Positions 5,461-49,693 are shown, numbered from the stretch's first letter. The stretch is DNA of 64,000 nucleotides from Amphiura filiformis (GCF_039555335.1 NC_092646.1:36923911-36987910), one strand, 5' to 3'. The notes: a model not told the origin generated them from the letters alone. Translations and numbers: made by a program.

Positions 5461-6060
5461 CTTTGACAGATCAGAGTGATCTTACCCTTTCATTTCTTTG
5501 GCTATCTTGACCAGGACCATGCGCAGAATTTTTTAATTGGTGGTGCAGAATTCCAAAATGCGGGCCTCCTCCCAAAAAAATCACTTGCATGCAGAAAGTG
5601 GACTTCACCACCCCCTAAAAAAATCTTCTAATTTGGACCTTCTTCGACATTTGTGCAGTTTTTTGTCATGAAGAGTGTTTTTTGGTAAGGATTTTTTTCT
5701 TGACTGTCTTCAGGTCTGCCTGAGTAACCTCTGACAGTGCACTTCCAAGGAGCTGCACCAAATATTGGTTTATATCCGTCAGCATTAACTAAGTACATCT
5801 AAATGATGTTACCCTTTCATTTCTTTGTCTATCTTGACTGTCTTCAGGTCTGCCTGAGTAACCTCTGACAATGCTGCATCTTTCTTCCAAGGAGTTGCAG
5901 TGCCAACTACACCAAATACTGGTATATATCTGTCAACAGTGACATCTAAATGAACTTACCCTTTCATTTCTTTGTCTACTTTGACTGTCTTCAGGTCTGT
6001 CTGAGTAACCTCTGACAATGCTGCATCTTTCTTCCAAGGAGCAACACTGCCTGGTAGACC
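5461..6060 (-). repeat. Tandem triplication (about 130-bp units, third partial) of the 3' tail and donor site of PARP4 exon 5960..6165
   Basis: The string cttaccctttcatttctttgtctatcttgactgtcttcaggtctgcctgagtaacctctgaca… recurs at about 5951, 5813 and 5495. Each copy keeps a GTAAG-type donor on the minus strand. Confidence 0.7.
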
Positions 6061-6165
6061 AAACACTATCTTATCTCCATCTACAGATAACTCTGCCATG
6101 TAGACTATCTTGATGACCACGGTTGTCTTTGGGGGAAGGTTACCTACACTCACTGTGAACACATC
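5960..6165 (-). CDS. PARP4: PARP4 exon (VIT domain, second half): DVFTVSVGNLPPKTTVVIKIVYMAELSVDGDKIVFGLPGSVAPWKKDAALSEVTQTDLKTVKVDKEMK
   Basis: Acceptor ctttgcag|GATGTG and donor GG|gtaagt. Near-identical to human DVFTVSVGNLPPKAKVLIKITYITELS…ATVAPWQQDKALNEN. Confidence 0.85.
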
Positions 6166-6234
6166 CTGCAAAGAGACACAATTTGAGTGATATCCTCTGC
6201 GCTGCAGCCTTCCAGTGGTGGCACAATGAGGGGA

Positions 6235-6545
6235 CATTTTATCTTGTCCCCCAGTAAAAACCCAAAAGTACGAAAAATTCTACATTTTGCAGAAATTTTG
6301 CGCAAAATTGGTAGATTTTCCCCCACCTGAAATTCACCCCCCTGGTAATGCCACTGCAGCCTTAACTGTACAAAGATCAAGTGGCAACACCAGGAATTTT
6401 TTTCGGGGGCATTGAGGAGGCAAAGTGAATTTCAGGGGGAAAAATCAACAAGTTTTGCGCAAAATTGCCGCAAAAAGTGGAAATTTTCGTAATTTGGGGT
6501 TTTACTGGGGGCAACGGGGGGAAGAGTTCTGACTGGGGGGCATTT
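6235..6545. repeat. Inverted pair of a dispersed repeat (family member also at 55245..55400)
   Basis: 6400–6545 is about 85% identical to 55245–55400 (…GCAAAGTGAATTTCAGGGGG…TTTTGCGCAAAATTG…GTGGAAATTTTCGTAATTT…). 6235–6365 carries the reverse complement of the same repeat. Confidence 0.55.
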
Positions 6546-7204
6546 GCCAGCACTGCAAAGACCCCCATTAGGCCTATAACAATGACAAATTCAGGACATT
6601 AACAGAGCACAAACAAAGGGCCTCTTCTCCTTAGTGGATAAACAAGTAATCAAGTATGGTAGAGAGCGGTTTAAATTCCTCTGAACAAGTTATAAATCAT
6701 CAAAAAAAGTGGGAATTGGTGAATCCAACGGACGAGGACACAAAACACATCAAGGATCAATAAATGATACAAGAGGATAAATCATCTTCAAGTATTATAG
6801 TTGATGGACACACCCCCACCCACACCTACATTGTACACACAATTCAGTCTCTCAGACAATCTAAAATTGAATTGAAAATGTGGGAACTTCTAGAAGCTAC
6901 TGATGCAGATGAAAGATGTGTTGTTCAATGACCAAGCTGATAAGACTATGAGGTGGTTAAAAGAAGCCATTTGGATCCACATCAAAGAACATGACACTCT
7001 AAACAAAGACGAGGGGCCTATGCACTCAACAACATCTTTGACCAACTCATCACACCCTCTGCAGTGCTTCCTGTTGCACGTAAAAGGCCACACAGTCTGA
7101 TGGGATGAGTTGCCATTCTGACGAAACCACTAGTGTAGTGGTGAAACGTCACTAAAACGGTGAGTAAATCACCTTCGTTTTTAGTTGAAATTCTTCAAAA
7201 TGAA

Positions 7205-7515
7205 AAAATGCACAGTTGAAATCAACATTCCTAATAGGCTATTCCAGTTGAAATCCACACTACCCCTGTGGAAGATTTTGGAAATATCTTCCACAGGGAG
7301 AGTATGTTTTTCAAATGTAATTGGTCAGGGTTAATCATTTTGAAAAACATACTCCCCCTGTATTATGGCTTTACCTATCTTCCACAACTGGAGTGAGTAT
7401 TTCAAATGGATGTTACCCAATTGTCTATTCTATTTGAAACTCATACTCCCTCTGTGAAAAACTTTAGCTAAATCTTCCACAGGGGTAGGATAGATTTTAA
7501 ATGGAATAGCCCACT
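7205..7515. repeat. Three tandem units of a hairpin-containing repeat (family member also at 29480..29700)
   Basis: Each unit has the hairpin CCCTGTGGAAGAT…ATCTTCCACAGGG and the motifs TTGAAATCCACAC and GGAATAGCCCA. Both loci share these motifs. Confidence 0.5.
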
Positions 7516-7566
7516 GAACTTGTTCAAAGATGTTAGATAACATGTATTTTATTATGCACTACTTAC

Positions 7567-7785
7567 TGGTGTTTCTTCATCCATAAGATAAGCTCCATGT
7601 CCCTTGCTGATAGCTTCTTTGTATTCCTTGTGGGCTGTTTCTTTGTCTTTCACCTCCCCTACGATATGCTTGTCATTAATGAAAGCTTCAAATCCACACA
7701 CTGCTGCCATATCATCCAGGGGGAACACATACTTAGCTTCTATCGGGTCATCATTTTCATTGGTGTACACTTGGAAGACTACAAC
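7567..7785 (-). CDS. PARP4: PARP4 exon (VIT domain, first half): VVVFQVYTNENDDPIEAKYVFPLDDMAAVCGFEAFINDKHIVGEVKDKETAHKEYKEAISKGHGAYLMDEETP
   Basis: Acceptor tttttag|GTTGTA and donor CCA|gtaagt. Near-identical to human VIVFQTYTNKSHVPIEAKYIFPLDDKAAVCGFEAFINGKHIVGEIKEKEEAQQEYLEAVTQGHGAYLM. Confidence 0.9.
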
Positions 7786-7799
7786 CTAAAAATTAGACA

Positions 7800-8110
7800 G
7801 AAAATGTGAAAGCAATACAAAGAAGGGGAATGAGGAAGAGGATGGAGGAATGAGGTGAAACATCAGGAGGAAGAAAAAGAATAATGTGGGAGGAATGTAG
7901 GGAAAAGGATGTAGATGTCGTAAAAGGATGGTTGAATAAGATTGGACCGATAAATTTAAAAAGGGAAAGGAAATATCAAAAGAAGGAAGAAGATAGGGGG
8001 GAGAAAACATGGTGTGGAAAACAAGGAAAGTGACAACAAGGAATAAAGAGTGGAAAAGGGGGAAGATGAGAAGACACAATAACAGAAGGATAAAGAAGAA
8101 AGAAAAGAAG
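7800..8110. repeat. GA-rich low-complexity tract in an intron
   Basis: Runs of GAAGGGGAATGAGGAAGAGGATGGAGG… The 97-aa ORF at 7786..8079 is an artefact of this tract. Confidence 0.8.
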
Positions 8111-8519
8111 AAGATGATAAAAAGAAAATCCTCAGGATATACTCATAAAAAAATACACTATTAACTGATTGTCATCTTTGCTCATCTGATGATAATGTTT
8201 ATCTGATATAGATAGAGATTACATATAATGATATTGCAGTATTAAAGTAAGGAAGTTTGCATGTTTTAAAACCGCTTGATATAAAGCAGATATGCTAACT
8301 ATCAAATTTTTACGGTGACACACTCCTTTTTTTGCCCATTGTTTCTGAAACAAACAAAAAACTGTTCTTTTAATTTGGCAGAATGTAGCTCATATAACAG
8401 AGAACTCTCATGAGTGACACTTGTTGGTTGCTTAAAAACAGTAGACCATGTTGGATGTAGCCCAATACTGGGTTGGCCAAGAACTGAATATCATCCAGAT
8501 CTTGACATCTGATACTCAC

Positions 8520-8650
8520 CTCCGCAGCCAAGTCCAGTAATTTAGCCCTGACATGGACAGCTTTCAGTGGCACTGGTTGATCACTATTAGACAATAGACC
8601 TGCTTGGACTTTGGACAGTGGGTCAGTAATGGACTGCACATCATTCAGAT
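8520..8650 (-). CDS. PARP4: PARP4 exon (linker into VIT): DLNDVQSITDPLSKVQAGLLSNSDQPVPLKAVHVRAKLLDLAAE
   Basis: Acceptor tttcag|AT and donor GAG|gtgagt. Its reading frame was checked codon by codon against ORF 8370..8675. Resembles human AGLQDASGNLVPLEDVHIKGRIIDTVAQ. Confidence 0.8.
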
Positions 8651-8800
8651 CTGAAATATTTGAAAATTTAGACAATTTTTATTTATGGCCCCATATCCAA
8701 ATTATGAATAAATTCGGAAATTAGACAAATTACATCTATGAGTATAAGCAACTACGGTTTGATTTGCATGGTAATAAGGTGATATTCCCAGGTTTCTTAC

Positions 8801-8966
8801 CAATTTTATCTCCCGATACCATCTCAATGTCCAAGTCATCTTGATCCAAGATGGCTGCCGTCTCCATGGAAACATTGAGGTTTTTAGGTTTGTCTGCTGG
8901 CAATGTGAATTCTACAAGATAGCGTATCCGCTGTTGAGTTATGTCATATACTGCAAATTCATCATC
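8801..8966 (-). CDS. PARP4: PARP4 exon (C-terminal end of the PARP catalytic domain): DDEFAVYDITQQRIRYLVEFTLPADKPKNLNVSMETAAILDQDDLDIEMVSGDKI
   Basis: Acceptor tttttag|GATGAT and donor ATTG|gtaaga. The DDEFAVYD…RYL motif matches the PARP catalytic C-terminus (PARP1 YNEYIVYD…KYLL, PARP4 DDEFVVYKTNQVKMKYII). Confidence 0.8.
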
Positions 8967-9187
8967 CTAAAAATAAAATGAAATACATTTCAAATACAAT
9001 ACATAGATATTTCATAATTATTATTATGTACATGTATCAATTTTAAAATATCATAACTGTGCTTGTAAAGAGACTCCCTGGCACATATTCTATAATATGC
9101 AAATTCACATTGTCTGTGCAAAAACTGTTACGTACTACTTTAATTTGTTTCACCAATTTCACTTCCTACAGAGAAATACCCAGCATA

Positions 9188-10316
9188 GAAATTAATACAG
9201 GGTGTATCAAAATGATTGGTACCGGGCTATGTGACATGTTCAAAAATATATCAAAAATATAAAATTTCAAATAAATATAGTTTTTTACTATCAATAGAAA
9301 GGGGCATATGTTAACGTATTGATCTGATAATCTGAAGATAATAGGTTGACGCATCTGGGAGCTATTGTCATTTAAACGATGATCGACGTAATCGTGGTTT
9401 TACTTACACAACACAAGATAAAACGGTTCACTGCTTGAACTATTTATTGTATACATGCTCTTCAATATCTCACCTCAGTCTACATGACAGCATTGCACAT
9501 GCTTTTAGAAAGATAGTTCCTGAAATTCCTGCCTTACGACTCTGGCAATGTGAGGTGAAGCCCTATATTGAATGAACTTAGCACCTGGGATGGATCCATT
9601 CTGTAACTGCCCATATCAAATTTTGAAACATTGCAAGTTATAGCATGTTTGCATGGGATACTCATTGCTCTTGGAAACTGTCTTCTAAATCTTATCTGCA
9701 CCTCTCCATAGCTTCGTGTCAACTAGTAATTCTTTACTATGAATGCACACTGAAGTGTGGAATACTGTGAAGCCATTCCAATAACTTTCACCACGTCTAA
9801 CCTAACATCCATGCACTGTCTACAGTCTATAGCCATTCTGTCACACCATCATTAATAATCTTAAACATCTTTATACTACAATTTAAATTACCGCCCTAGA
9901 AAGTGTTGATACATTAACTTCTTTCACCCACCTAAAATATTCAAGTCAATAATATTACTCCCAACCAATAAAATATTGATTAGAACATTTATTTATATTA
10001 TGAATGAAGAAATAGGCAAGGAAAAAATTTCCATGATTTTCAACATATCATTCTCACAAGGTATTGGTAGTAAAATAGAGCTTTGAAAATGATCCAGCGT
10101 TACGATGAAAAGTGTAAAAACACCTACTTTCCTTTATAATCATGTAACTTTAGAACAGAATGTGCTATCTTTATGATCTAAAATTCTTAGAGAAGATAAA
10201 ACTACTATAATTTCAAATATTTAAACAATTAACCCCAAGCTGGTACATAAAATAGTTTAAAAAATCTGCAAAAATGAAAAGTCGTTGGTACCAATCATTT
10301 TGATACACCCTGTAGC
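9188..10316. mobile_element. Non-autonomous DNA transposon remnant with 26-bp terminal inverted repeats and TA flanks (Tc1/mariner-like)
   Basis: CAGGGTGTATCAAAATGATTGGTACC at 9190–9216 and its exact reverse complement at 10289–10314, each followed or preceded by TA. The interior has no ORF. Confidence 0.5.
9538..9600 (-). CDS. PARP4: PARP4 micro-exon (catalytic domain): NGSIPGAKFIQYRASPHIARV
   Basis: Acceptor ttacag|AATGGA and donor GTC|gtaagg. It is 63 bp and phase 0, and sits between the exons ending …PSDFK and beginning DDEFAVYD, at the position of PARP1 …NISLDGVDVPLG…. Confidence 0.5.
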
Positions 10317-10394
10317 ATGCAAGTTATGTCATAACTGGTCTTATGGTTATCTTGTAAAGACTACAAAACAGATTACAGTAAATAGATGCATTTT

Positions 10395-10800
10395 GTAAAG
10401 GGTGTGACAAGTCCTACGTAGGGGAGACAGGAAGACAGTTTGGGACAAGACTCAAAGAACACAAGAAAGACTCTGAAACAATAGCCGAAAGAAAATTCAC
10501 AAGGGCAAACAGGAAAGAATCAACTTCTGAACAACACAAATCAGCCATTACTGACCACATCACGCAGGAGAACCATGTCATTGAATGGGAGGGGGCAAAA
10601 GTACTTGACAGGGACTCGAACGCATTCACCAGAAGAATATATAAAGGGAAGCTATCCAAATCCGCAAAAAGGGGGCCAAAGCAATCAACCGCGATGAAGG
10701 TATCGTCTCTCTCGATCACGTATACGATCCACTGCTCAAAACAAAAACAACATCACTTCCTGGAAATGTCAACAAGCCGTTTCGCGGGAAAAGCAGTGGA
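10395..10800 (+). mobile_element. Penelope-like element 3' fragment (GIY-YIG endonuclease domain) with a frameshift
   Basis: The plus-strand translation reads GCDKSYVGETGRQFGTRLKEHKKD…HKSAITDHITQENHVIEWEGAKVLD, then in another frame KEAIQIRKRGPKAINRDEGIVSLDHVYDPLL. These are canonical GIY-YIG and PLE C-terminal motifs. No reverse transcriptase lies upstream, so the copy is 5'-truncated. Confidence 0.65.
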
Positions 10801-10976
10801 CCAAGACACTTGTGATCAAGCCATCAGCCCAGATGGCGAAAGCTAAAGTAGTGAGTTACTTTTTATTGGATTTACCTAGCAAAATGTTTAATTATACAAA
10901 CAAATTACCTTGAAATTGGTAGCTTTGGAAGCTCTGTTTAAAATATGCTTACAGATAGCTCTGTCAGGTACTAATA

Positions 10977-11816
10977 TTAAGGTACTTCCTGACATCTGGA
11001 CATTGTCCTTACCTTAAAATCTGAAGGATACAGCTCTGTTCCTTTGACTCCATGAACACTATGATATCCTTGAGGGGCTTCTGACAGTTCCTTGTGGTAC
11101 TTCTTAACATCTGGACATTTCCTTACCTTAAAATCTGAAGGATACAGCTCTGTTCCTTTGACTCCATGAACACTATGATATCCTTGAGGGGCTTCTGACA
11201 GTTCCTTATGGTACTTCTTAACATCTGGACATTGTCCTTACCTTGAAATCTGAAGGATACAGCTCTGTTCCTTTGACTCCATGAACACTATGATATCCTT
11301 GAGGGGCTTCTGACAGTTCCTTGTGGTACTTGTTGACATCTGGACATTGTCCTTACCTTGAAATCTGAAGGATACAGCTCTGTTCCTTTGACTCCATGAA
11401 CACTATGATATCCTTGAGGGGCTTCTGACAGTTCCTTGTGGTACTTGTTGACATCTGGACATTGTCCTTACCTTCAAATCTGAAGGATACAGCTCTGTTC
11501 CTTTGACTCCATGAACACTATGATATCCTTGAGGGGCTTCTGACAGTTCCTTGTGGTATTTGTTGACATCTGGACATTGTCCTTACCTTGAAATCTGAAG
11601 GATACAGCTCTGTTCCTTTGACTCCATGAACACTATGATATCCTTGAGGGGCTTCTGACAGTTCCTTGTGGTACTTCTTAACATCTGGACATTGTCCTTA
11701 CCTTGAAATCTGAAGGATACAGCTCTGTTCCTTTGACTCCATGAACACTATGATATCCTTGAGGGGCTTCTGACAGTTCCTTGTGGTACTTGTTGACATC
11801 TGGACATTGTCCTTAC
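10977..11816 (-). repeat. Tandem array (about 7–8 copies of 117 bp) of the 3' tail and donor site of PARP4 catalytic exon 11817..12000
   Basis: The unit is ACAAGGAACTGTCAGAAGCCCCTCAAGGATATCATAGTGTTCATGGAGTCAAAGGAACAGAGCTGTATCCTTCAGATTTCAAG followed by gtaaggacaatgtccagatgtcaagaagtacc, repeated head to tail. Every copy retains the GTAAGG donor. Confidence 0.8.
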
Positions 11817-12000
11817 CTTGAAATCTGAAGGATACAGCTCTGTTCCTTTGACTCCATGAACACTATGATATCCTTGTGGGGCTTCTGACAGTTCCTTGTG
11901 GTACTTATTAACATCTTGGCATTTTCCAAGTGCTACTTCATTGATGGTCATCAGTCTTGTACCAGTTGTCTGACTTGCTGCAGAATATTTGGCACTTGTG
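11817..12000 (-). CDS. PARP4: PARP4 exon (catalytic domain): TSAKYSAASQTTGTRLMTINEVALGKCQDVNKYHKELSEAPQGYHSVHGVKGTELYPSDFK
   Basis: Acceptor cctgtcacag|C and donor AAG|gtaagg. Matches PARP4 STSIKYSHPGETDGTRLLLICDVALGKCMDLHEKDFSLTEAPPGYDSVHGV and PARP1 SKSANYCHTSQ…LLLGEVALG…KGKHSVKG. Confidence 0.85.
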
Positions 12001-12064
12001 CTGTGACAGGGGTAGAAAAAAATATTCCAAAGCTAATTCATTTGACAAGGAGATGGTTGACCAC

Positions 12065-12345
12065 TTAGCCCCCCCCAAAAAAGGTTTGTCTCAAAGCTCA
12101 CGAGAAATTTAAAACAAATGCGAAATGCGATTTTTTTTTTTTTTATTTTTTTTTTATTCCCAACTTTTTTCATGGAATTTTGAGAAAAAAAGTCTGATTT
12201 TCGCCGATTTTTCTGGAAAAACTATAAAAAATTATTTTTTGAAATAAAAAAATTTCCGCATTTGTTTTTTGTCAAACGTGGGATTTTACAAATGCGCGCG
12301 CAAGCTTTGAGACGAACCTTTATTTTTTTTGGCCTTACCAATGAG
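12065..12345. mobile_element. MITE-like element with terminal inverted repeats
   Basis: GGTTTGTCTCAAAGCTCACGAG near the left end pairs with …GCAAGCTTTGAGACGAACC near the right end. The interior is A/T-rich with poly-T and poly-A runs. Confidence 0.4.
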
Positions 12346-16530: not shown

Positions 16531-16949
16531 CTGCAAAGAGTGTAATTACGTAATGGGAATTACTGTTGAGTGAGAACAACCTTTCAAATACTAAACATTA
16601 AGAGTGCATTAATCCAAAGTCTCAGAACCAAATTATGAATGGTGAGCCCAGACCTTCATTTTTGAGGAGCTCGATTGCACCAGAGCTCCTACAGCTCTCC
16701 TTAACAACATTTCAGGAGTATGATTTACTGAGCTCCTCACTACTTGAATCCCTACGTTTAAAATACAGGTATTAAAAGATTGAGCTCCTTGTTGAGCACC
16801 TTAGTAAACTCAGGAGAGCGATTAACAGAGCTCCAGCAATTTTCAAAAATGAAGGCCTGTTAGCCAATATTTTAATAGTGCCTATAACCATTCATGCTTA
16901 ATTAAATAGCTGTTGTAATAGTTTATTGAGCTTGGAAATAAATCAAACT

Positions 16950-17204
16950 AATATATTGCTGTGATCTCTGTAATAGTAGCCTGTGCAATAGTGATAATAA
17001 TAAATCTTACCTGACATAGATTCTGTTTCTTGGCAATCATGCTGCGTGTTCTGATATCTTGCTGTGATTTCTGTGGCAGTAAGCTGTGCAATAGTGATAA
17101 ATCTTACCTGACATAGATTCTGTTTCTTGGCAATCATGCTGCGTGTACTGATATCTTGCTGTGATTTCTGTGGTAGTAAGCTGTGCAATAGTAATAAATC
17201 TTAC
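16950..17204 (-). repeat. Tandem array (about 3 copies of 97 bp) of the 3' tail and donor site of PARP4 exon 17205..17372
   Basis: The unit …CAGCAAGATATCAGTACACGCAGCATGATTGCCAAGAAACAGAATCTATGTCAG followed by gtaagatttatcactattgcacagcttactgccacagaaatcacag is repeated. It explains the overlapping ORFs at 16943..17188, 17037..17489 and 17231..17467. Confidence 0.8.
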
Positions 17205-17372
17205 CTGACATAGATTCTGTTTCTTGGCAATCATGCTGCGTGTACTGATATCTTGCTGTGATTTCTGCGGCAGTAAGCTGTAGAATTCCTGGCTAAGTTC
17301 TTTGAGTTGAGTTGTGTTAGATTGGTCAAGTGAACGCTTGATTTGAAGGAGAACAGCCTCTGCTTTCTCCAC
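17205..17372 (-). CDS. PARP4: PARP4 exon (PARP regulatory helical domain): VEKAEAVLLQIKRSLDQSNTTQLKELSQEFYSLLPQKSQQDISTRSMIAKKQNLCQ
   Basis: Acceptor gcgacag|GTGGAG and donor CAG|gtaaga, with boundaries anchored to ORF 17037..17489. Matches PARP4 VKAALKNGETAEQLQKMMTEFYRLIPHKGTMPKEVNLGLLAKKADLCQ. Confidence 0.85.
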
Positions 17373-22421: not shown

Positions 22422-22504
22422 CTGTATCATGAAAAGGTTTGAGTTATGAAAGGGATATATCATCTGAACAGACCCACAACATGTACATTTATATATGGAA
22501 TTAC

Positions 22505-22547
22505 CTTTCAGTATATTAGTGATCCAATCCATCTGGATAGCAGCTTC
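22505..22547 (-). CDS. PARP4: Candidate PARP4 mini-exon EAAIQMDWITNILK(G), the founder of the 83-bp array
   Basis: An open frame bounded by AAG|GAAGCT and AAAG|gtaatt. Possibly homologous to PARP4 …EQLQALLLEEVMNSS…. Only phase-compatible with the next exon if the CTAG|AG acceptor at 22411 is used. Confidence 0.35.
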
Positions 22548-23000
22548 CTTTTGTCTTGGTCACGTTCCATGGTGACTTTGTCTTACCTTTCTGTATCTTG
22601 GTGATCCAATCCATCTGGATTATAACAGCTTCTTTGTCTTGGTCATGTTCCATGGTGACTTTGTCTTACCTTTCTGTATCTTGGTGATCCAATCCATCTG
22701 GATTATAACAGCTTCTTTGTCTTGGTCATGTTCCATGGTGACTTTGTCTTACCTTTCTGTATCTTGGTGATCCAGTCCATCAGGATTATAACAGCTTCTT
22801 TGTCTTGGTCATGTTCCATGGTGACTTTGTCTTACCTTTCTGTATCTTGGTGATCCAATCCATCTGGATTATAACAGCTTCTTTGTCTTGGTCATGTTCC
22901 ATGGTGACTTTGTCTTACCTTTCTGTATCTTGGTGTTCCAATCCATCTGGATTATAACAGCTTCTTTGTCTTGGTCATGTTCCATGGTGACTTTGTCTTA
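22548..23000 (-). repeat. Tandem array (about 5.5 copies of 83 bp) of mini-exon-like units with their flanking donor site
   Basis: Unit …GAAGCTGTTATAATCCAGATGGATTGGATCACCAAGATACAGAAAG followed by gtaagacaaagtcaccatggaacatgaccaagacaaa. Every unit keeps GTAAGA. The unit length is not a multiple of 3. Confidence 0.8.
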
Positions 23001-23336
23001 CCAGGAAAGTTGAAAAAGAAGGAGGGACATCGGAATTATATCCTTGAGATAATCCCGTAGGTAATCCTGTCGCACCTATTCATAGTCCTTTATTCTCAAG
23101 TAGTTACACATCTACTTGAAAGTAGCCTTTGATGTGATGTGGGTTGCCGACTACGGTTGATTAATTTTCACTCCAGAATTAAAACCATATCCAATGTTTC
23201 TATAGAGAATCCCTTGAAAGTATGACACGTGTGTGTTAAGTACCTGATGTTGCTCTGAAGGGATGCTACACGTGGATACTATAAGAAAGAAATTTAGTTT
23301 TGTAAAGATTCCAAAAAAATCCGCCCATTTTGGAAC

Positions 23337-24029: not shown

Positions 24030-24600
24030 TTACATCTTCTCTGGTCTTACCTTTCTGTATCTTGGTGTTCCAATCCATCTGGATTATAACAGCTTCTTTG
24101 TCTTGGTCATGTTCCATGGTGACTTTGTCTTACCTTTCTGTATCTTGGTGTTCCAATCCATCTGGATTATAACAGCTTCTTTGTCTTGGTCATGTTCCAT
24201 GGTGACTTTGTCTTACCTTTCTGTATTTTGGTGATCCAATCCATCTGGATTATAACAGCTTCTTTGTCTTGGTCCTGTTCCATGGTGACTTTGTCTTACC
24301 TTTCTGTATCTTGGTGATCCAATCCATCTGGATTATAACAGCTTCTTTGTCTTGGTCCTGTTCCATGGTGACTTTGTCTTACCTTTCTGTATCTTGGTGT
24401 TCCAATCCATCTGGATTATAACAGCTTCTTTGTCTTGGTCATGGTCCATGGTGACTTTGTCTTACCTTTCTGTATTTTGGTGATCCAATCCATCTGGTTT
24501 ATAACAGTTTCTTTGTCTTGGTCCTGTTCCATGGTGACTTTGTCTTACCTTTCTGTATTTTGGTGATCCAATCCATCTGGACAACATCTTCTTTGTCTTG
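24030..24600 (-). repeat. Second 83-bp tandem array (about 7 copies) of the same mini-exon plus donor unit
   Basis: The same unit as 22548–23000, with TGATCC/TGTTCC variants. It lies directly 3' (in transcript orientation) of candidate exon 24549..24710. Confidence 0.8.
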
Positions 24601-24710
24601 GTCATATTCCATGGTGAGGTTGTTTTCTGGTTGTACAGAAAGCTGTAGACCTGCAAAGCTTCTTCACTGGTTGCACTGTACCGACACTCACGGACACCAC
24701 CTGTGTCACT
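24549..24710 (-). CDS. PARP4: Candidate PARP4 exon SDTGGVRECRYSATSEEALQVYSFLYNQ(KTTSPWNMTKTKKMLSRWIGSPKYRK); 3' end uncertain
   Basis: Acceptor gatttacag|AGTGAC. The first half resembles PARP4 GMETRRQFAIKKTSEDASEYFENYIEELKKQ. The second half is itself an array-like unit, so the true donor may lie earlier. Confidence 0.35.
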
Positions 24711-26899: not shown

Positions 26900-28536
26900 A
26901 CACAAAAGTAAGTGTTATGACCATGTATAGTTTGAACATAGGTACACACTAGCTCATCTGCACCAAGACACATCTGACACACATTAATGAAACCAAACTC
27001 ACCTGGAACAATCTTCCCTGAGCTGAACTCCTGTGTCATAGATGTCCCACAGACAATGTGTGCATCAGTATCTACATGTACCAGATTATCTTCACTGAGA
27101 CACATATCAAAGAAATTAAAACTCACCTGTGACAATCTTCCCTGAGCTGAACTCCTGTGTCATAGACATCCCACAGACAATGTGTGCCTCAGTATCTATA
27201 CTAGCTTATCTTCACTGAGACACGCATTAATGAAACCAAACTCCCTGTGACAATCTTTCCTGAGCTAAACTCCTGTGTCATAGATGTCAGACACACACAT
27301 TAATACATCAATGACACCAAACTCACCTGTGACAATCTTCCCTGAGCTAAATTCTTGTGTCATAGATGTCCCACAGACAATGTGTGGCTCGGTATCTACT
27401 AGCTTATCTTCACTGAGACACACATCAATGACACCAAACTCACCTGTGACAATCTTCCCTGACCTAAACTCCTGTGTTATAGACGTCCCACAGACAATGT
27501 GTGCCTCTGTATCTACTAGCTTATCTTCACTGAGACACACATCAATGACACCAAACTCACCTGTGACAATCTTCCCTGAGCTAAACTCCTGTGCCACAGA
27601 CGTCCCACAGACAATGTGGCTCTACATGTATTAGCTTATCTTTACTGAGACACACATCAAAGAAGCCAAACTCACCTGTGACAATCTTCCCTGACCTAAA
27701 CTCCTGTGTCATAGACGTCCCACAGACAATGTGTGCCTCATTATCTACTAGCTTTTCGTCACTGAGACACACATCAATGAAACCCAACTCACCTGTGACA
27801 ATCTTCCCTGACCTAAACTCCTGTGTCATAGACGTCCCACAGACAATGTGTGCCTCATTATCTACTAGCTTTTCGTCACTGAGACACACATCAATGAAAC
27901 CCAACTCACCTGTGACAATCTTCCCTGACCTAAACTCCTGTGTCATAGATGTCCCACAGACAACGTGTGGCTCTGTATCTACTAGCTTATCTTCACTGAG
28001 ACACACATCAATGACACCAAACTCACCTGTGTTATAGATGTCCCACAGACAATGTGTGCCTCTGTATCTACTAGCTTATCTTCACTGAGACACACATCAA
28101 TGACACCAAACTCACCTGTGACAATCTTCCCTGAGCTAAACTCCTGTGCCACAGACATCCCACAGACAATGTGTGCCTCATTATCTGCTAGCTTTTCGTC
28201 ACTGAGACACATCAATGAAACCCAACTCACCTGTGACAATCTTCCCGAGCTGAACTCCTGTGTCATAGGCGTCCCACAGACAATGTGTGCCTCTGTATAT
28301 ATACCAGCTTATCTTTACTGAGACACACATTAATGAAACCAAACTTAACCGTGACATGTGCAGCTCTGTATCTACTATAGCTTATCTTTACTGAGACACA
28401 CATCAAAGAAACCGAACTCACCTGTGACAATCTTCCCTGAGCTGAACTCCTGTGTCATAGACGTCCCACAGACAATGTGGGCCTCATTATCTACTAGCTT
28501 TTCGTCACTGAGACACATCAATGAAACCCAACTCAC
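26900..28536 (-). repeat. Tandem array (about 14–15 copies of 120 bp) derived from the 3' part of the BRCT exon, including its CAG|GTGAGT donor
   Basis: The unit encodes …(G)EFGVIDVCLSEDKLVDTEAHIVCGTSMTQEFSSGKIVT and copies the exon text MDFIDVCLSEDKLVDTEPHIVCGTSMTQEFSSGKIVTG. At 120 bp (40 codons) the array is largely open in frame on the minus strand, but the three ORFs 27265..27597, 27581..28006 and 27982..28266 are frame-shifted relative to each other, and the plus strand is also open. Confidence 0.8.
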
Positions 28537-28738
28537 CTGTGACAATCTTTCCTGAGCTAAACTCCTGTGTCATAGACGTCCCACAGACGATGTGTGGCTC
28601 TGTATCTACCAGCTTATCTTCACTGAGACACACATCAATGAAGTCCATACCCAGGATAGGGACACCATATTTCTGGGCCATACGACCTTTGTAAGAATCT
28701 TTTGCCTTCTCTGCATTGCTGACTATCAGGTGAGAGCT
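28537..28738 (-). CDS. PARP4: PARP4 exon (BRCT domain, C-terminal half): SSHLIVSNAEKAKDSYKGRMAQKYGVPILGMDFIDVCLSEDKLVDTEPHIVCGTSMTQEFSSGKIVTG
   Basis: Acceptor attgtag|AGCTCT and donor ACAG|gtgagt. Matches PARP4 THIILDNADVLSQYQLNSIQKNHVHIANPDFIWKSIREKRLLDVKNYDPY. Confidence 0.8.
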
Positions 28739-28861
28739 CTACAATATAATTATGAAAGAGATAAATCAGATATCAGTGTGACATTTCATGCCACCTAATA
28801 TAAAATTACATAACATACACTGGTATCAATTCAAAAATATACCCAAGCTACTGTAAAATCA

Positions 28862-29200
28862 TGAGCTTTCTCATTTATCCTCTATCCCACTCAGTGTGGC
28901 CCTAAACGTGCAGACACCAGAGTGGGTGCATAGTGTGCCGTGGTTTGGAGAGTCACGTAAAATGGTGGTCCCATGTACCAAAAGAGCAATATCTGGACAT
29001 GTAAAAGTTGCAGGCCGTTTTGTAAAGAGCAGGGGATCAGCCCCGGCCTGTTGTCTGTCACACTCAGCATTGAGGTCAACTTGCGCTGCCCTCAGGGGCT
29101 CGGCAGCATATCGACCCGTGGCATGCTTTGAGGGATCTGAGTATCCAGAAAGCGTGGATAAATGCAGTTTTATTATTATTATTGTTACTGCTTATATATA
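28862..29200 (+). mobile_element. tRNA-derived SINE, 5'-truncated copy with a (TTA)n/TA-rich tail
   Basis: 28862–29160 is about 90% identical to 3420–3711. It lies inside PARP4 intron 1. Confidence 0.6.
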
Positions 29201-29479
29201 TATGCCATTCCAAACAGATTATGTTTTGCCAGTTTCTTAAAAACGCCAATGGATTCTGCATTTCTAAAGGCAGTTTGTTCCAGATTTTTATAACACATTG
29301 GCCACTGGCCAGAAGGTACTTTTTGTATTTTAATAATGTGTTTCTCAATTTCACTGAATTGTTGACTCCAATTTTTTTTTTCGCCAGGACACTCAATAAT
29401 TCAAAAAGTAGGGGGGTTCTTCTCCATTTTTTCGCTAGTAAATACTATTTAGCCTAATTGCGCTATTGGGCTATATCAC

Positions 29480-30124: not shown

Positions 30125-30289
30125 CTTTTTTGTAATAATGTATGACACAATTCCTCCATTATCTGTGATTTTCTTCCTTAATTCTTGCTTCTGTTTAAAT
30201 CTCACTTGAGCTGCATCCAAATCTAAGACAATCTGACATCCATGAAAAATCCCAGCTGCCGTAGCTGTACCGGGAGCTGTACCGGCAAC
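30125..30289 (-). CDS. PARP4: PARP4 first BRCT-encoding exon: VAGTAPGTATAAGIFHGCQIVLDLDAAQVRFKQKQELRKKITDNGGIVSYIITKK (5' extent and start codon unresolved)
   Basis: Donor AAG|gtaaac. Matches the human PARP4 N-terminus MVMGIFANCIFCLKVKYLPQQQKKKLQTDIKENGGKFSFSL. The frame stays open upstream to 30505, with in-frame ATGs near 30382 (MVQPEF…) and 30505. A possible acceptor cattcacag|GTTGCC sits at 30289. Confidence 0.65.
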
Positions 30290-30759
30290 CTGTGAATGAA
30301 ATAACAGTGTGTGTATTAGGGGTAAGTTCAATTGGCATTTATCATGTTTATGGCAAAGATAACAAAATTCCGGTTGCACCATCACGACAACCGATCTGGG
30401 AATCTTGTTCGCACTGCACTCTATACAAGTTATTGAATAATTTTTCACTATGGATCCATCAACAACTGTACCGTTAGTTATTGATATTCCCCAATTCTGA
30501 CCCATCTATTGTTAACCCGGCCATCCATTATTTGTTTAAGAGCCAGTCTCCCTTATTACAATGTATGTACCCAAATCAGGGGGGTTGTGATACAAAAAAA
30601 AATAGAATTTTCTCTAAAAAATAATTTTGGTACATATTAACACCAACAACACTCATGTAAAATATGAGCGTGCACAGCGCCCTCGTTCAGCTTTAAAAAA
30701 TGCTTGAAATTTCACCCTCTCTGAGCCTTACTTGCAAATGGTAAACTTTGAGGTGCGTA

Positions 30760-31920
30760 ACATCATGCGCCATCATTATCCCAACCTGCATTTTGCATTT
30801 TTTGAAGTACCAAATGGTTACATTACAAAAACCAAGAAAAAAGGTTGGGATCTTGATGGCGCACAAAATCAGCAAATCCAACTTTTTGATGAAAAGCGCC
30901 CTCGTGCAAACTTCAAAGCATCATAACGGGCTGCGCCATCAAGATCCCAAGTCCGAACAAGTTTGAAATTAAAGACCTCAATGATAAGTTTAATTTTTCA
31001 GCAAAAAGTTTTTGGGATTTTGATGGCGCACATAGTTAACAGAGGTCAAAGGTCAAAAATTCTTATTTTCGCACATTTTTACATGCCTGTATTATTGCGC
31101 GCCAACTTCACCTGACTCTCCGAATAAAATTTCATCAAAGAAGAGGTAATTCTCTGCAAGTACTGAAAAATTAGCTTGGGATATCTTGATCTTCATATTT
31201 TTCTGATTTTTTGAAAATGGACTTACATGTAGCCTCATTGTGGAGGTCAATAATTGCCCTATTTTCCCCTCATTATGACGCTGTAGCACAATGTGGGCTT
31301 TTTACTGCATCACAAAAAGATGCGCCAACAAGATCCCAATTTTATTTATCTTCTAGCTTCGTGGCAACTGGTAGACAAAAAAAATTACCAGCTACTTGGG
31401 ATCAAGTGGGCGCACTAATGTAAAAGAGGTCAAAGGTCAAGCTTTGTGCCAAAGTGACGCATATTTCCCTATGTGCAGCACAAAACTGGAACTTTAACCC
31501 GCAATAAAAATGTGCGCCAACATGATCCCATCTCATTTTTTGGATGCATGGCTAAAGGAGCTCATGTATAACTGAATGCTAGTAAAAAAAAAGTGGGATC
31601 ATGTGGGCGCACTAATTCAATAGAGGTCAGACAAAGTTTGAAATTTGACCCTCCGTAATGACCTTTGACCTCGGTTGACCTCGATTTTATTTCGGGCATG
31701 TAATCCCCTCGTATCAAGAATTCCACCCACCAAATTTGAGCCCGATCGGACAAAGTTTGAAATTTGACCCCTCCATAATGACCTTTGACCTCGGTTGACC
31801 TCGATTTTATTTTGCGCATTATATTCCCCTTGTATCAAGGATTCCACCCACCAAATTTGGGCCCGATTGGACAAAGTTTAACATTTGACCTTTGACCTTG
31901 ACCTCCGATGACCTTTCAAA
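30760..31920. promoter_or_regulatory. Cluster of at least 6 direct-repeat AGGTCA half-sites (DR1, one DR4) carried on small hairpin repeats, 0.4–1.6 kb upstream of the PARP4 5' end
   Basis: GAGGTCAAAGGTCAA at about 31041 and 31427. TGACCTTTGACCTCGGTTGACCTCG occurs twice (about 31652 and 31770, DR1 plus DR4 on the opposite strand). TGACCTTTGACCTTGACCTCCGATGACCTTT is at about 31880. Four modules flanked by inverted GCGCCAaCAaGATCCCAA…TTGGGATCaaGTGGCGCAC span 30770–31640. Confidence 0.45.
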
Positions 31921-34857
31921 CCACCCCATAAGGCCAAAAAAAATTGTTTGTGACCAACCGTGTACTCTGGTCCCGACCGTGTCTTTTTTTCTTTCTTTTT
32001 TTAAATTTGCGTTGAATGTGCTAGTAAAACAATGGTTAGTATAAATTTAAAGAAAGAAAATGTAAAGAAAATGAACAGTATAACATGCAGAACCATCTCA
32101 AGAGTTAAACCAGTAAAGTGCTTTTTAAAGTGTGTTTTGACTTATTTTATACCAGTCTTCAAATTGTCAGTTTCAAGTGCAATATCTGTAAAAAAAAAAA
32201 AATCCGACCTACCGACCCAACTGTTTCATAAGCCTTTATGGACAAACAAACATTTTTTTTTGGCCTAAACGTGGAATGCCCGATACCTATCTATATCGGA
32301 AATATCGGAATGATGCGTCGAAGCGCGGCGAAACGCATAGCCGGATAGACAGACAGACAGAGCTCATTATTTTATTAGTGTAGATTGGTGAGGGCCCCCG
32401 GCCTTATTATTTGTTAATATGTGACCATCCACCACTAAGTGGTAGTAAAGTCGGCTCTGGATCATTTTCAGTTTATTGCAGATTTTGAATGAATGCACTT
32501 TCAGCTTCAAAATGACACCTCAACCAGCTTCATCGGACATCTGGAAGTGAAGTTATGGTTCATCAAAGGTCAAATTCCTAATATATTTTACATAGAAATC
32601 CATACTGTTTTTGATTTATCTCAAAATGGAAAATGCCGACTTTACAACCAGTTTGTGGTGGATGGGCACATATGGGTTTTTTTATCATGTATTTCTGTGT
32701 AAAATTGCAATTGCAAAGTGTTTGTCAACACACCATAAAAATAGGGAGGCCCGTAATATTTTTGCTATTCCCCTAAAGCCCTACCACTATCATGAATTAA
32801 GAGAATGTTTGCAATGTTTATAAATGATAACTGTCATGTCTTTTCATTAGAAAATATTGATTTTGATTAAACAAATTTGATTATATGTTTTCAAAACTCC
32901 TTTTTCATAATGATCATAAAACATTGCCATACCGTATTATAAAACATTGTCGCTGATCTCCGATTGATCCATCAACCCCCATGGTAACAAACGAGCTGAC
33001 CATGAGCCGACCATCAAATTGGAATCGCACACTTTTGCGCTATTCCTCCTTACCCAGATGAATTCATCTCTTAATATCCAAACATGTGAATTCTTTCTGT
33101 AAACAACTTTGCACAACCATCAGGATGGGAATCCCGCGATATTCCCCAGTACGTCATATGCATAAATTATTATAATATCGATGGAACTGATCCAAAATTA
33201 GCGTCCAATTACAGTGACCGGAAATCCGGAATATACAGTTTTCGGAACCCAAGAGACATATTGCACTTGTCATGCTTGTTGCAGTGAACTACACGCCCGA
33301 CTCACGGTGAACAACCCGAGTGAACAACATCATTGCAGACGCTGTCATCACTGGAAAATGCACGAAACATCATTACGTACATTGCCAGCAAGACTTCAGT
33401 CTTTATCATAAGGCACTTGAAACTTGATTCTGAGTTTAGCGTCCACCGCCCGCGTTATAAATTTTGAGCCGCATTTGAGATGTAAAATCTGAAAATAATT
33501 CATTATTTTGTAAATTACTACTAAACCAGAAAGAAAATTTGTTGTGCAAAATTTTTAGCCCCCTTTTTTTGTATTTGAACCCTTCAAAAACTATAGAAAG
33601 CCTTGAGAACTATTAGATGAATCCATCTAAATATTTTAGCATTAAAAATATACAGGTTTTTGACCCTTGCTCTATCCAATTATTTCAATTATACCTTTGG
33701 GATACCAGGGTAGACTAGAAGAGAAATCAAAATGTTTTTACCAGATGGACATTGTTGATGTTGTAAATAATTTAACTAAGAAGACCTAGTTTTGACAAAT
33801 TGGTGCCAAAAATGTATTTCATAATGTTCTGCATGATTGTTATTTTTGTATTTAATGAGTCAAACCCCCCCCATTTCCCCTATCCTCAAATGTATACGGA
33901 GAGGTTTGTACAAATTGCAGTGAAGAAGACTGGCATGGTATAGGCCTACTTCGGAATACATTTACCCGGTTACATTTAGTTTGTTTTAAAACTTAAAAAA
34001 CAAAAAGCAAGATAATTATACTTTTATAAATGTATGTATGTGTTTGTGACATTATATTGAGACTGGCGATACAATGAACAAAAGCGCATAAGCATTGGTA
34101 AAAGGCCGCTGATAATGAAACCTTGAAAATAATGAATAATGAAATAGTTGCCTCATTATGAGCTGAAAAAAATGGGACGCTAAACTCAACATCAAGTTTC
34201 AATAGCCTAAACATAATAACATCTACGGACCATGGTTACTATCTAACATCTATGGTTACAGTTACTGGAACTATACATTCAGTGACAATCAGAATGAAAC
34301 AATTTGGGGACTTTTGGATCATATTTTCATGGATGATTTTCTTGGAAATGGAATTTATGGAAACATTTTTGACTTACATGTAGACAACTTGCAAAGGATG
34401 GTATATCTGCATGGATCACGGTCGCAAGTACGCATTTTCCCCTGATTTTTTTGGAGTCAAGTATAGCAGTTTGTAAAAAATGACTCGCATTTTGCAATGC
34501 GAATCCAGGTAAATCGAACACTGAGTGCAGGCATCACATGAGCGAAGTTACTCGACAAACACTATCAACAAATTTGCTCACAGATGCTGTGCTTTGGACA
34601 TGTTAGAGAATATTTCGAACAAGATAAGAGGGAAGATGGATGCACCCTTTTTATGGTTGTGGTGGTATTCACTCGGTCGGACATCCGGGAACAATATCCC
34701 CTTTGCACAAGCGCGCGCACAGCAAGCAGCTCGAGAAAGGGGAACTACACATGCGCACACTGGCTGCACCAGTATGTCTAGTCTGCACGTGATCAACATT
34801 TCTGCACCCTTGGCATGGCGTCCCAGCGTCCGGAAAGGATCCTGCTGAGTATCGGCG

Positions 34858-37319: not shown

Positions 37320-37730
37320 CACAAAAAGCCACAGGCATTGTCATTTTCTATTCTTCCCTATACTCAGTTTTCTTTCTTTTTCTCTCCCTATTCCTTCTTC
37401 TCTCCCTAGTCCTTCCTCTTTCTGTTTCTCTTCTCTCTTTCCCTTTCTCATTTACTTTTTTCCTCTTCTCCCTCTCTTCAGTTTCTTTTTCCCCTTTCCC
37501 TTTTTCTTCCCTCTTTTTGCTATTCTTCTTTCCCCTTTCTCTTCTTCCCTCTTTTTCTTTCATTTTCTCTTTTCTCTTCTTTCTTCCAATTCCTCTTCTT
37601 TCTTTTTTCCTTTTTTCTTCTCCCTTCCCCTTTGTCTTCTTCCCCCTTTCTTTCCCTTTTTACTCGTCTCTCTTCCCCTTTTTTCTTCCCTCTTTTTCTC
37701 TCCTTCCCCCTGGAAAATTTTACAGGTGAC
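37320..37730. repeat. CT-rich (polypyrimidine) low-complexity tract of about 400 bp
   Basis: ttctttctttttctctccctattccttcttctctccc… ORFs 37280..37729 (+) and 37348..37563/37520..37759 (-) are composition artefacts (FLFLSL… and KEKEKR…). Confidence 0.85.
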
Positions 37731-44642: not shown

Positions 44643-45224
44643 GCCTATCTTGTTGGTTTAAGTGAAGTTTGCTACTGGTTTTATTATTACCTGTGTTGCG
44701 ATTCGAAATCCCACAAAGAGTAAGTAAGTTCGTTATTAAATGTGGTAGGCCTCGCCTCAGTACCCCCCTCCCCCCTCCCGGTCCCAACATACACATTGAC
44801 TCAATTAAGGCGCGGATTCACGGTGGCTGACGGACCCACCCCCCAAAAATAAAGAGAAGAGAAGGGGAAGAAAGGAGAAAAAGAGAAGAGAAAATGGAGG
44901 AAAGGAGGAGAGAAACTAAATTGCACATAATTGAGTAGGCCCATGTGTAAATAACCGCACAGTCGGGACGATTGGAAGTAGGTCCTATAATAGGCCTGCG
45001 ATTATTTTCTAAAAAAGGCATTGCTTGAAGGCGGGTCATGTGAAAATTACTGCGGGTCCGCCGATATGCAGGGCCCCTCACATTTTGCCACCAATGTCAG
45101 TATTAAGACGGACTCCATACCGACTTCATCTATTTATGCATGCTTTAGTAATTGCCAATCTCAAGTTTTGCAAATTGAGTTCGGGCCCTTTTTCTGTTAA
45201 AATGCAATTGATTCAAATAGTAGT

Positions 45225-48310: not shown

Positions 48311-49554
48311 TTTAAATCAGGCCTGATTATTCCCCAATTTAAATCGGTTTTCCGATTTTTTTTCTACTAAAAAAAACAAAATAAATTTTTTTTTTTTTAC
48401 ATTTCTGGAGTGGGGAAATTAAGAAAGTGTTAATTATAAACTTTTTAGGGGTTGCATGCATTAAAAATGAAAAACAATTTTAGAAAAAACCCATACAATT
48501 ATATGCCTCAGAAACCCAATTTTTACCCTCTGATATGGCTAAAACCCAGGAGCTTCGGGGGGGCTTCGCCCCCTTAACCCCCTGGACCCCAGCGGAGCGT
48601 TGGCGATACTACGGTCGCCAACTTAAACAAAAACAGATTTTTTTTTTTCAGGACCACAATCAGGCCTGTTAAATTGGAATTAATCTGCCTAAAAATGAGT
48701 GGGGTGCTGGCTATTAAATATGTTTGGGCAGTGGGGTCTATTGACGACCCTATCACTGATTTTCCTTGAGGGTGAAATGGTCAAGAAAAAAAGTTTTTAA
48801 GTATAACTTAGTAAGGCAGGGATTTTAGGGTAATTTGGTACCGGGTACCAGACACATTTTTCGGGCGGGTAATCGGGTACCCGAAATTGCAACAAAAAAA
48901 ACAAGAACATTTTTTTATAGATTTTTTTGTTAAGGTTAAATGTTTTCGGTTTGGAGTGTCCCTGGACCTAAAGGTAAATGCTAGGATCATTCCAAGTGGT
49001 GAGCGCAATGCATTCTCTAAATTCAGTAAATTTTCTTTGTCGGCCGTGTAATTGTATGGGATTATTTTGATATTTTTAAACGCTTAAAATATCACAAACA
49101 ACTAGGCCTATGTTAATAAATAATATAAATTTACAATCTAAAACCGTTGGGGTTCGATAATGAACCCCACAAAACTAACCTTCAAATTAATTAAATACAA
49201 TAAAATTTGACTAGTACTGGGTGAGAGTCGCTGTCACGGTTTTAAATTCACTGTGTTGGTCAGGCTCCGATCACTCAGTTTGCAAATTGAACGGCGCGTA
49301 CCAGTGATCACGGCAGCTGCTAAATTTAGTCCCGATTTACTTCCGTGTTCCGATTGTATAGAAAGTGCCATAGGGCTGAGCAGTTTTGCCGGTTCGCTCT
49401 ATAATGCCACTCATTATGATTTGAAAATGCATTGAATTTGTATCCATTTTGAAATCATTATAAAATAGAGTATTCCAGCATCCCACTATCAATATTTATT
49501 CATATCAAGTTTGTTTTCTTTTACACCACACAGCTCAGAGCATGATCGCCAACC

Positions 49555-49693
49555 ATGTTTTCTGTTCGGATTGTCACGGCCAACCACTACGTTGCGCCTC
49601 CAATCAAGGAGTTGGACGCAACCTTTTCGGATTTCCGTAGGTCAGAGGTCAAACAAGTGCCTGTTATCCGTATTTTTGGATCAACACCTGCAG
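49555..49693 (+). CDS. REV3L: REV3L (DNA polymerase zeta catalytic subunit) coding exon 1: MFSVRIVTANHYVAPPIKELDATFSDFRRSEVKQVPVIRIFGSTPAG
   Basis: Starts at ATG 49555 and ends at donor GCAG|gtaagt (phase 1). Near-identical to the human REV3L N-terminus MFSVRIVTADYYMASPLQGLDTCQSPLTQAPVKKVPVVRVFGATPAGQK. A TATA-like TCTATAAT lies at about 49395. Confidence 0.85.

Follow-up and report, generated by a model that had tools for sequence, protein, structure and literature searches.

A cluster of DR1 nuclear-receptor motifs near a PARP4 BRCT exon of Amphiura filiformis is probably part of a composite interspersed repeat

We have analysed a stretch of 64,000 nucleotides (the window) from the brittle star Amphiura filiformis, whose genome of 1.57 Gb is reported to have a G+C content of 36.7%, to consist of repeats to 59% and to bear the record of a burst of DNA transposons (PMC11310086). 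The window is eukaryotic in character, with ~38% G+C and introns, and it carries a PARP4-type gene on its minus strand. Two exons of this gene, both belonging to the BRCT domain, lie closest to the motif cluster that is the subject of this report:

30125-30289, minus strand: PARP4 exon for the first half of BRCT, an N-terminal domain of PARP4, with a canonical splice acceptor at its start
28537-28738, minus strand: second BRCT exon, joined to 30125-30289

The joined BRCT exons are 98% identical to an NCBI protein named 'mono-ADP-ribosyltransferase PARP4-like [Amphiura filiformis]', and further PARP4 exons, encoding the PARP catalytic, VIT and vWA regions, continue down to about position 700. 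At the start of the first of these two exons (30263-30285) we note a 12-bp tandem duplication, CCCGGTACAGCT twice on the minus strand, that adds four residues (…GTAPGTA…) in comparison with relatives.

Inside the PARP4 gene there are six tandem arrays on the minus strand (5795-6067, 10981-11927, 16947-17281, 22501-23002, 24044-24617 and 27305-28642), with periods of 147, 115, 97, 83, 83 and 117 bp, respectively, and with up to ~11 copies. Each of them repeats the 3' end of a coding exon along with its 5' splice site, and such amplification of exon-intron junctions, occurring repeatedly in one gene, is an unusual pattern. Five of these arrays contain 34 of the window's 51 minus-strand AGGTRAG sites, and the unit of 117 bp is open over its 39 codons (FIDVCLSEDKLVDTEAHIVCGTSMTQEFSSGKIVTGE). 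The closest annotated protein, NCBI P0031 from A. filiformis, is 129 residues long and reads past the first splice donor into this 117-bp unit (…GKIVTGEFGFIDVCR), and the downstream vWA-region exon matched no annotated A. filiformis protein, its best match being one of 74% from another species. Two PARP4 introns also harbor, in the same orientation, one copy each of an interspersed repeat of ~300-380 bp (3406-3708 and 28857-29237), the 'gcgctttgag' core of which is reminiscent of SINE central domains.

At 49545-49690, on the plus strand, a divergently oriented gene begins with a first coding exon (MFSVRIVTANHYVAPPIKELDATFSDFRRSEVKQVPVIRIFGSTPAG) that resembles the N-terminal end of REV3L, the catalytic subunit of DNA polymerase zeta. 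The coding sequence of this exon includes a DR1-like AGGTCAGAGGTCA, and the observed/expected CpG ratio peaks at 1.1 just upstream of it. Long CT-rich low-complexity tracts, at 37375-37711 and 44851-44915 (the latter also AG-rich), lie between PARP4 and this REV3L-like gene.

The region from 30760 to 31920 had been singled out in the initial annotation for at least six DR1 motifs. A pattern search set against 100 dinucleotide-preserving shuffles bears out both the cluster and its non-random nature: exact AGGTCANAGGTCA occurs eight times in the 64-kb window and in none of the shuffles, and five of the eight matches, all of them AGGTCAAAGGTCA, fall in this region. The number is another matter, as there are five exact AGGTCAaAGGTCA sites, each with two RGGTCA half-sites in direct orientation and a 1-base spacer, and seven under a relaxed pattern (RGKTCA-N-RGKTCA with one mismatch), the extra two being GGGTCAAATTTCA at 31639 and 31758. 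The pattern scan places the exact sites as follows:

31043, plus strand: exact AGGTCAAAGGTCA DR1
31427, plus strand: exact AGGTCAAAGGTCA DR1
31659, minus strand: exact AGGTCAAAGGTCA DR1
31779, minus strand: exact AGGTCAAAGGTCA DR1
31886, minus strand: exact AGGTCAAAGGTCA DR1

The remaining three matches in the window (at 2014, 3923 and 49639) lie in sequence that is unrelated and apparently coding. Of the window's 64 copies of AGGTCA, 16 are inside these 1.2 kb, and AGGTCA is ~1.5-fold enriched over the window even when the cluster is left aside. A DR1 with A as its spacer is (AGGTCAA)2, and TRF calls a 7-bp repeat here. The arrangement of a DR4 with a DR1, AGGTCAaccgAGGTCAaAGGTCA, of which a single example had been claimed, has two occurrences, 31659-31681 and 31779-31801, both on the minus strand, and the region closes with a third composite of four half-sites. 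The DR1s of the array are perfect predicted consensus sites for receptors of the NR2 type (HNF4, COUP-TF and RXR). HNF4 and RXR are both present in echinoderms. COUP-TF is as well (PMC4227642).

We find that the plus-strand DR1s sit within a composite repeat array, the extent and parts of which were established from an alignment with a second copy on another contig (L005, described below) and from a profile of eight units:

30607-31632, plus strand: whole composite repeat array, made up of four intact units and a degenerate one, plus a weakly homologous stretch of ~160 bp on the left
30766-30864, plus strand: unit 1, left arm 30766-30784, right arm 30845-30864, with no DR1 after it
30886-30928, plus strand: linker block AGCGCCCTCGT...TCATAAC between units 1 and 2, identical to L005 at 33 of 43 positions
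30932-31057, plus strand: unit 2, left arm 30932-30950, right arm 31012-31031, DR1 AGGTCAAAGGTCA at 31043-31055
31099-31196, plus strand: degenerate unit U2b, reduced to GCGCCAAC (left) and TGGGAT (right) at a distance of 78 bp
31321-31441, plus strand: unit 3, left arm 31321-31339, right arm 31396-31415, DR1 at 31427-31439
31512-31630, plus strand: unit 4, left arm 31512-31530, right arm 31593-31612, lone AGGTCA half-site at 31624-31629

Eight copies of a 19-nt arm, alternating in orientation, make up four inverted-repeat modules (chance expectation 0.06). An intact unit consists of a 17-bp, two-part motif, GCGCC-N7-TCCCA, followed 75-80 bp on by an inverted copy of the motif and then by AGGTCA. 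The distance from GCGCC to TGGGA is 79 bp in unit 1, which folds with -46.7 kcal/mol (z -7.2), and 80 bp in unit 2, where the DR1 begins 30 bp past TGGGA in a block that is identical to L005 at 17 of 17 positions. Unit 3 has a spacing of 75 bp and again a DR1 at +30, its left and right arms being identical to those of L005 at 18 of 19 and 18 of 20 positions, respectively. In unit 4 the spacing is 80 bp and a half-site stands at +30, where the L005 counterpart has a full DR1. Taking the window and L005 together, AGGTCA starts exactly 30 bp after the TGGGA of the second motif copy in six of the six units that have an AGGTCA. The half-site of unit 4 is thus homologous in position to the plus-strand DR1s of units 2 and 3, as these are to each other.

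The left arms of the window start at 30767, 30933, 31099, 31322 and 31514, giving periods of 166, 166, 223 and 192 bp, and the unit periods of L005 are 168, 166, 209 and 179 bp. The units run head to tail, are similar in length and have sequence in common, as do those of a tandem (satellite-like) array. A second, related copy of the linker is found at 30671-30698. When the modules are aligned, the arms prove strongly conserved and the loops much less so. Conserved sequence also borders the arms on the outside, with GCATCAnAA ahead of the left arm and CACnAAT...AGAGGTCAAAGGTCAA behind the right one, so the repeated unit must be larger than the hairpin.

The minus-strand DR1s belong to a duplication on the right of the array, which the initial annotation had given as one of 120 bp and which TRF finds with a period of 121:

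31630-31890, minus strand: 121-bp tandem duplication, 2.2 copies, 90% matches
31886-31914, minus strand: truncated third copy, ending by motif scan in the four half-sites AGGTCAtcggAGGTCAAGGTCAaAGGTCA

Each full 121-bp copy carries one minus-strand AGGTCAaccgAGGTCAaAGGTCA and one GGGTCAAATTTCA near-site, and the three minus-strand DR1s are tandem copies of each other. A 21-nt sequence, GTYAACMGAGGTCAAAGGTCA, is common to the tail of unit 2 and to the 121-bp repeat, in inverted orientation. Since the plus-strand DR1s are homologous and the minus-strand DR1s are tandem copies, the cluster reflects the multiplication of one or two ancestral sites and not five independent gains. Adjoining the array at 31932-32265 is a 334-bp Tourist/Harbinger-like MITE, with 20-bp terminal inverted repeats (GGCCAAAAAAAATTGTTTGT and its complement) and with a TAA target-site duplication at 31929-31931 and 32266-32268.

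The second copy came from a single scan of a metagenome/WGS contig collection with the two-arm pattern, in which L005 (JACSEG010013172.1, 1864 bp, 37.7% G+C) was the sole contig returned. Window positions 30766-31438 are collinear with L005 605-1270 at 63% identity over 697 bp (E 9e-50), and a weak collinear extension of ~160 bp to the left joins 30607-30669 to L005 444-507. L005 matches the window array unit for unit, with four intact units and one degenerate unit, and even the linker AGCGCCCTCGT...TCATAAC is included; the counterpart of U2b is in the same half-decayed state in the same place, with a spacing of 80 bp. The arm pairs of L005 are spaced at 80, 80, 80 and 80 bp, as against 79, 80, 75 and 80 bp in the window, and three of its units have AGGTCA at +30. 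Apart from the weak left extension the flanks of L005 are unrelated to the window, and the PARP4 exon is absent from L005, where conserved spacing would put ~128 bp of it. The same sequence is found in unrelated contexts, as is characteristic of a dispersed repeat, on the evidence of this one second copy. The description of the motifs as repeat-borne is upheld, in that every DR1 lies at a homologous position, whether in a unit or in a 121-bp copy, and that the whole array recurs in collinear form on an unrelated contig.

The two copies of the array differ in a highly uneven manner. For this comparison the blocks were defined on the window only. Between the window and L005 the arms have 79% identity and the loops and spacers 45% (Fisher p 9e-15), the latter figure being about the chance level for AT-rich sequence. 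Motif identity between the array copies is 79-100%. All 16 arms contain GCGCC and TCCCA without a single change, whereas the seven intervening bases are variable, and the loops retain their length (seven of eight at 79-80 bp) but not their sequence. The repeat-derived open reading frames of the two copies, which are 63% identical as DNA, have no 5-residue words in common.

Neither a short-word self-BLAST nor an nhmmer profile of the eight units revealed another copy in the window outside 30.6-31.9 kb. The unit profile, which recovers all the known units, has no further match in the remaining 63 kb of the window, nor in 40 kb of sequence from relatives (the loci L001 and L002), from which it follows that the repeat family is not very abundant. 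Solitary units are likewise absent from the window and from these two loci, and what recurs is the array as a whole. As expected, viral and prokaryotic genome collections yielded no match to the hairpin pattern or to the pattern of arm plus DR1.

The initial annotation placed the DR1s on four small hairpin-flanked modules and a tandem duplication, and took this to look like the seeding of a regulatory module by a transposon or repeat. The four inverted repeats are indeed there (30766/30845, 30932/31012, 31321/31396 and 31512/31593), but they do not have the appearance of small transposon insertions, as no target-site duplication flanks any of the eight hairpins in the window and L005 and partner arms are not especially complementary to one another. 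All four modules form stable single-strand folds on both strands (z -4.6 to -7.5), as any inverted repeat would. Partner arms differ on average by 1.75 mismatches and non-partner arms by 2.3 in the window, and by 4.0 and 3.5, respectively, in L005, where partner arms differ at 4-6 of 17 positions and the central bases are without compensatory changes. We therefore reject the hairpin as the selected feature, since partner arms do not exceed non-partner arms in complementarity. A search of Rfam at E values up to 10 gave only sub-threshold look-alikes of plant microRNAs (best 27.5 bits against a cut-off of 70), and ARAGORN found no tRNA-like genes or tRNA-derived elements. Because partner arms are not extra complementary, compensatory changes are absent and neither Rfam nor the tRNA search gave a family, the conserved object is a two-part motif held at fixed distances. 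A motif with fixed spacing from its own inverted copy and from a DR1 points to protein-binding sites as the likely basis of the pattern, and not to an RNA or DNA hairpin. CTCF, ZNF143, YY1 and E2F were considered as factors for the 17-bp motif by way of their consensus sequences, and none of these fits across the units.

The position of the array relative to the start of the gene bears on what it might do there. The array begins 476 bp upstream, in the sense of the gene, of the BRCT exon at 30125-30289, and to that extent it is, as had been proposed, just upstream of PARP4 coding sequence. That this is the first coding exon is doubtful: a canonical 3' splice site (ttatttcattcacag|G) stands before it, and within 30 codons of its conserved GIFHGC start there is no ATG. 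The similarity of the window to three contigs from related brittle stars starts, at the nucleotide level, only at 30253-30267, and in two of these relatives the acceptor is in the same place. Neither strand of the window encodes MNKKAETG, the eight N-terminal residues of the NCBI PARP4-like protein; an isolated MNKK at 54351 was considered as an upstream PARP4 exon and dismissed as a chance match. The first PARP4 coding exon is probably a short exon further upstream. Because the adjacent exon starts at an acceptor and MNKKAETG is not in the window, the array may be intronic. We also note that the absence of MNKKAETG, taken with the short, read-through P0031 and the unmatched vWA-region exon, makes the gene model here or at a paralogue look truncated by the tandem arrays. 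The observed/expected CpG ratio is 0.27-0.35 in the gene body, 0.6-0.8 from ~30.25 kb over the array and ~1.0-1.1 at 32-33.5 kb, and the shift at ~30.2 kb is a weak hint that the 5' boundary of a transcription unit is nearby. That the array lies in the PARP4 promoter is possible but unproven, a location in the first intron being equally so, and its interpretation as a regulatory module of the PARP4 promoter is so far unsupported.

Related brittle-star loci offer a further comparison. L002, a contig of 19.6 kb from a related brittle star, aligns over the exon alone, at 80% identity, and neither a DR1 nor an arm motif occurs over the 9.6 kb that lie upstream of its BRCT exon. In the closer relatives L003 and L004 also only the exon aligns, these contigs being too short to reach the position of the array. 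L001 (ENA ERZ25071788 ctg22603), from a more distant relative, has a very compact PARP4-like locus at 5583-12161. Within the 20 kb analysed, this locus starts with the VIT region, directly preceded by a Kelch-repeat gene, and neither BRCT nor PARP catalytic exons were seen. Since the L001 locus starts at the VIT region it is uninformative on the promoter.

We favor the interpretation, to which we assign a probability of roughly 0.6, that the DR1 cluster is an intrinsic part of an unclassified composite interspersed repeat and was not assembled at PARP4. In addition to the second copy, this reading draws on the TE-rich surroundings (the adjacent MITE with its TAA duplication, and the genome's repeat content and DNA-transposon burst) and on the absence of the array upstream of PARP4 in L002. 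According to the mechanism we propose, an ancestral unit of ~170-190 bp would have had two inverted copies of GCGCC-AWCAWGA-TCCCA ~80 bp apart, with (AGGTCAA)2 30 bp beyond the second. Tandem amplification, as the internal homology of the units shows, brought this to at least five units, and the whole array then came into the at least two genomic contexts in which it now occurs, presumably by transposition or by some other form of copying. Both copies have retained the motif halves, their spacing and the DR1 as the intervening sequence diverged almost to saturation, which means that protein-binding sites have been under selection. In the simplest reading the retained motifs may be cis sites that serve the element lineage in its own propagation, for example by binding a transposase or a factor of the host. 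At this locus the GGTCA-rich tail has recently been duplicated in tandem with a period of 121 bp, which added three more DR1s on the other strand, and the Tourist/Harbinger-like MITE landed next to the array subsequently. The duplication history, the occurrence in two contexts and the uneven conservation are seen in the sequences themselves; the mobility of the element, the identity of its binding proteins and any effect on PARP4 are things we infer. As a by-product, the array could lend responsiveness to NR2-type receptors to PARP4.

A different view is that the array is a conserved cis-regulatory platform, whether enhancer, promoter or insulator, that serves PARP4 or a few genes, with receptors of the HNF4, COUP-TF or RXR type on the DR1s and a second factor on the two-part motif, and that L005 is the orthologous or paralogous regulatory region of another genome. 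Block-wise conservation with fixed spacing resembles the outcome of phylogenetic footprinting, and strong conservation of motifs beside a gene is expected of a host regulatory element too; the start of the array only 476 bp from the BRCT exon, the CpG rise over the array, which fits a nearby 5' gene boundary, and the low abundance of the family, with a single contig from the metagenome scan, can all be counted in its favor. If L005 came from another species it could indeed be an orthologous conserved non-coding element, since neutral flanks would then be unalignable and L005 extends only 604 bp to the left of the array. Nevertheless, L005 lacks the PARP4 exon where ~128 bp of it would be expected, L002, with its 80% exon identity, has neither DR1 nor arm motif in 9.6 kb, and the adjacent exon starts at a splice acceptor; we consider this view unlikely. 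We are similarly doubtful about the broader proposition that the array is a selectively maintained platform in brittle-star DNA, be it an undescribed mobile family that spreads receptor modules or a conserved regulatory or architectural element for PARP4 and a few other genes.

Two further readings can be given much less credence. The inverted repeats might be precursors of small RNAs, a cluster of hairpins of the microRNA or siRNA type whose arms are the mature strands, as all four fold stably on either strand and the arms are conserved while the loops are not, in the way of microRNA families. This seems to us very improbable, given that no Rfam family reaches its threshold, that partner arms do not surpass non-partner arms and the mismatches in L005 are uncompensated, that an inter-arm stretch of 59-63 nt is long for animal microRNAs, and that a DR1 fixed at +30 would be left unexplained. 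Least credible of all is that the cluster arose by chance slippage of a 7-bp AGGTCAA microsatellite with neither common ancestry nor constraint. The DR1 with an A spacer is literally such a dimer, called as a 7-bp repeat by TRF, and the half-site is enriched window-wide outside the cluster, but in six units, spread over two diverged copies of the array, the dimer keeps a distance of exactly 30 bp to the arm motif; it never exceeds two units plus one base, and in unit 2 it is part of a fully conserved block.

The composite-repeat reading has parallels among described elements. In human, Alu and Tigger repeats carry direct repeats for nuclear receptors into promoters, where binding has been found in vitro and by ChIP (Bolotin et al. 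2011, PMC3252374), and some repeat-borne sites modulate transcription driven by HNF4alpha (PMC3252374). The likeness is that a repeated element contains direct repeats of the AGGTCA type and so brings them close to genes, and we regard the array, on the strength of its sequence, as a putative case of the same kind in an unclassified brittle-star repeat. Alu, however, is a SINE with about a million copies and with sites that are mostly degenerate and of low affinity, whereas the brittle-star array has perfect consensus DR1s at a fixed position, is unclassified and is known from only two copies. Inverted arms of 17-21 bp around ~60 bp of AT-rich sequence, forming stable hairpins, recall MITEs or foldback elements, but here the arms are probably not termini, as conserved sequence goes on outside them, there are no target-site duplications or solitary copies, the hairpins are regularly spaced at 166-222 bp with conserved linkers, and it is the array that recurs and not the hairpin.

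Helentron or DINE-type elements and the 'pearl' elements of bivalves contain a few tandem units of 150-190 bp and are dispersed as a block, and in this the array is similar to them; its units, unlike those of such arrays, are old and diverged and have not been homogenised, and neither ends of the Helitron type nor a 3' hairpin with CTRR nor a coding partner was identified for it. The ends of Sleeping Beauty-type elements (IR/DR) likewise consist of repeated two-part sites at rigid distances with the intervening DNA free to change, as in the array, which differs in having no transposase gene or termini and in having its motif pairs four to five times in tandem instead of two per end.

If the array is an ordinary dispersed repeat, it would be a further example of transcription-factor motifs that ride on repeats, and it carries the caution that motif clusters made of mutual copies are not to be read as regulatory design. 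Less ordinary is the retention of a rigid architecture (invariant motif halves, spacings of 80 bp and 30 bp, and the DR1) amid near-saturated change, which speaks for the binding of specific proteins. If the proteins that bind it are host nuclear receptors, the array would provide a tractable case of the repeat-mediated wiring of a receptor network in an echinoderm model of regeneration.
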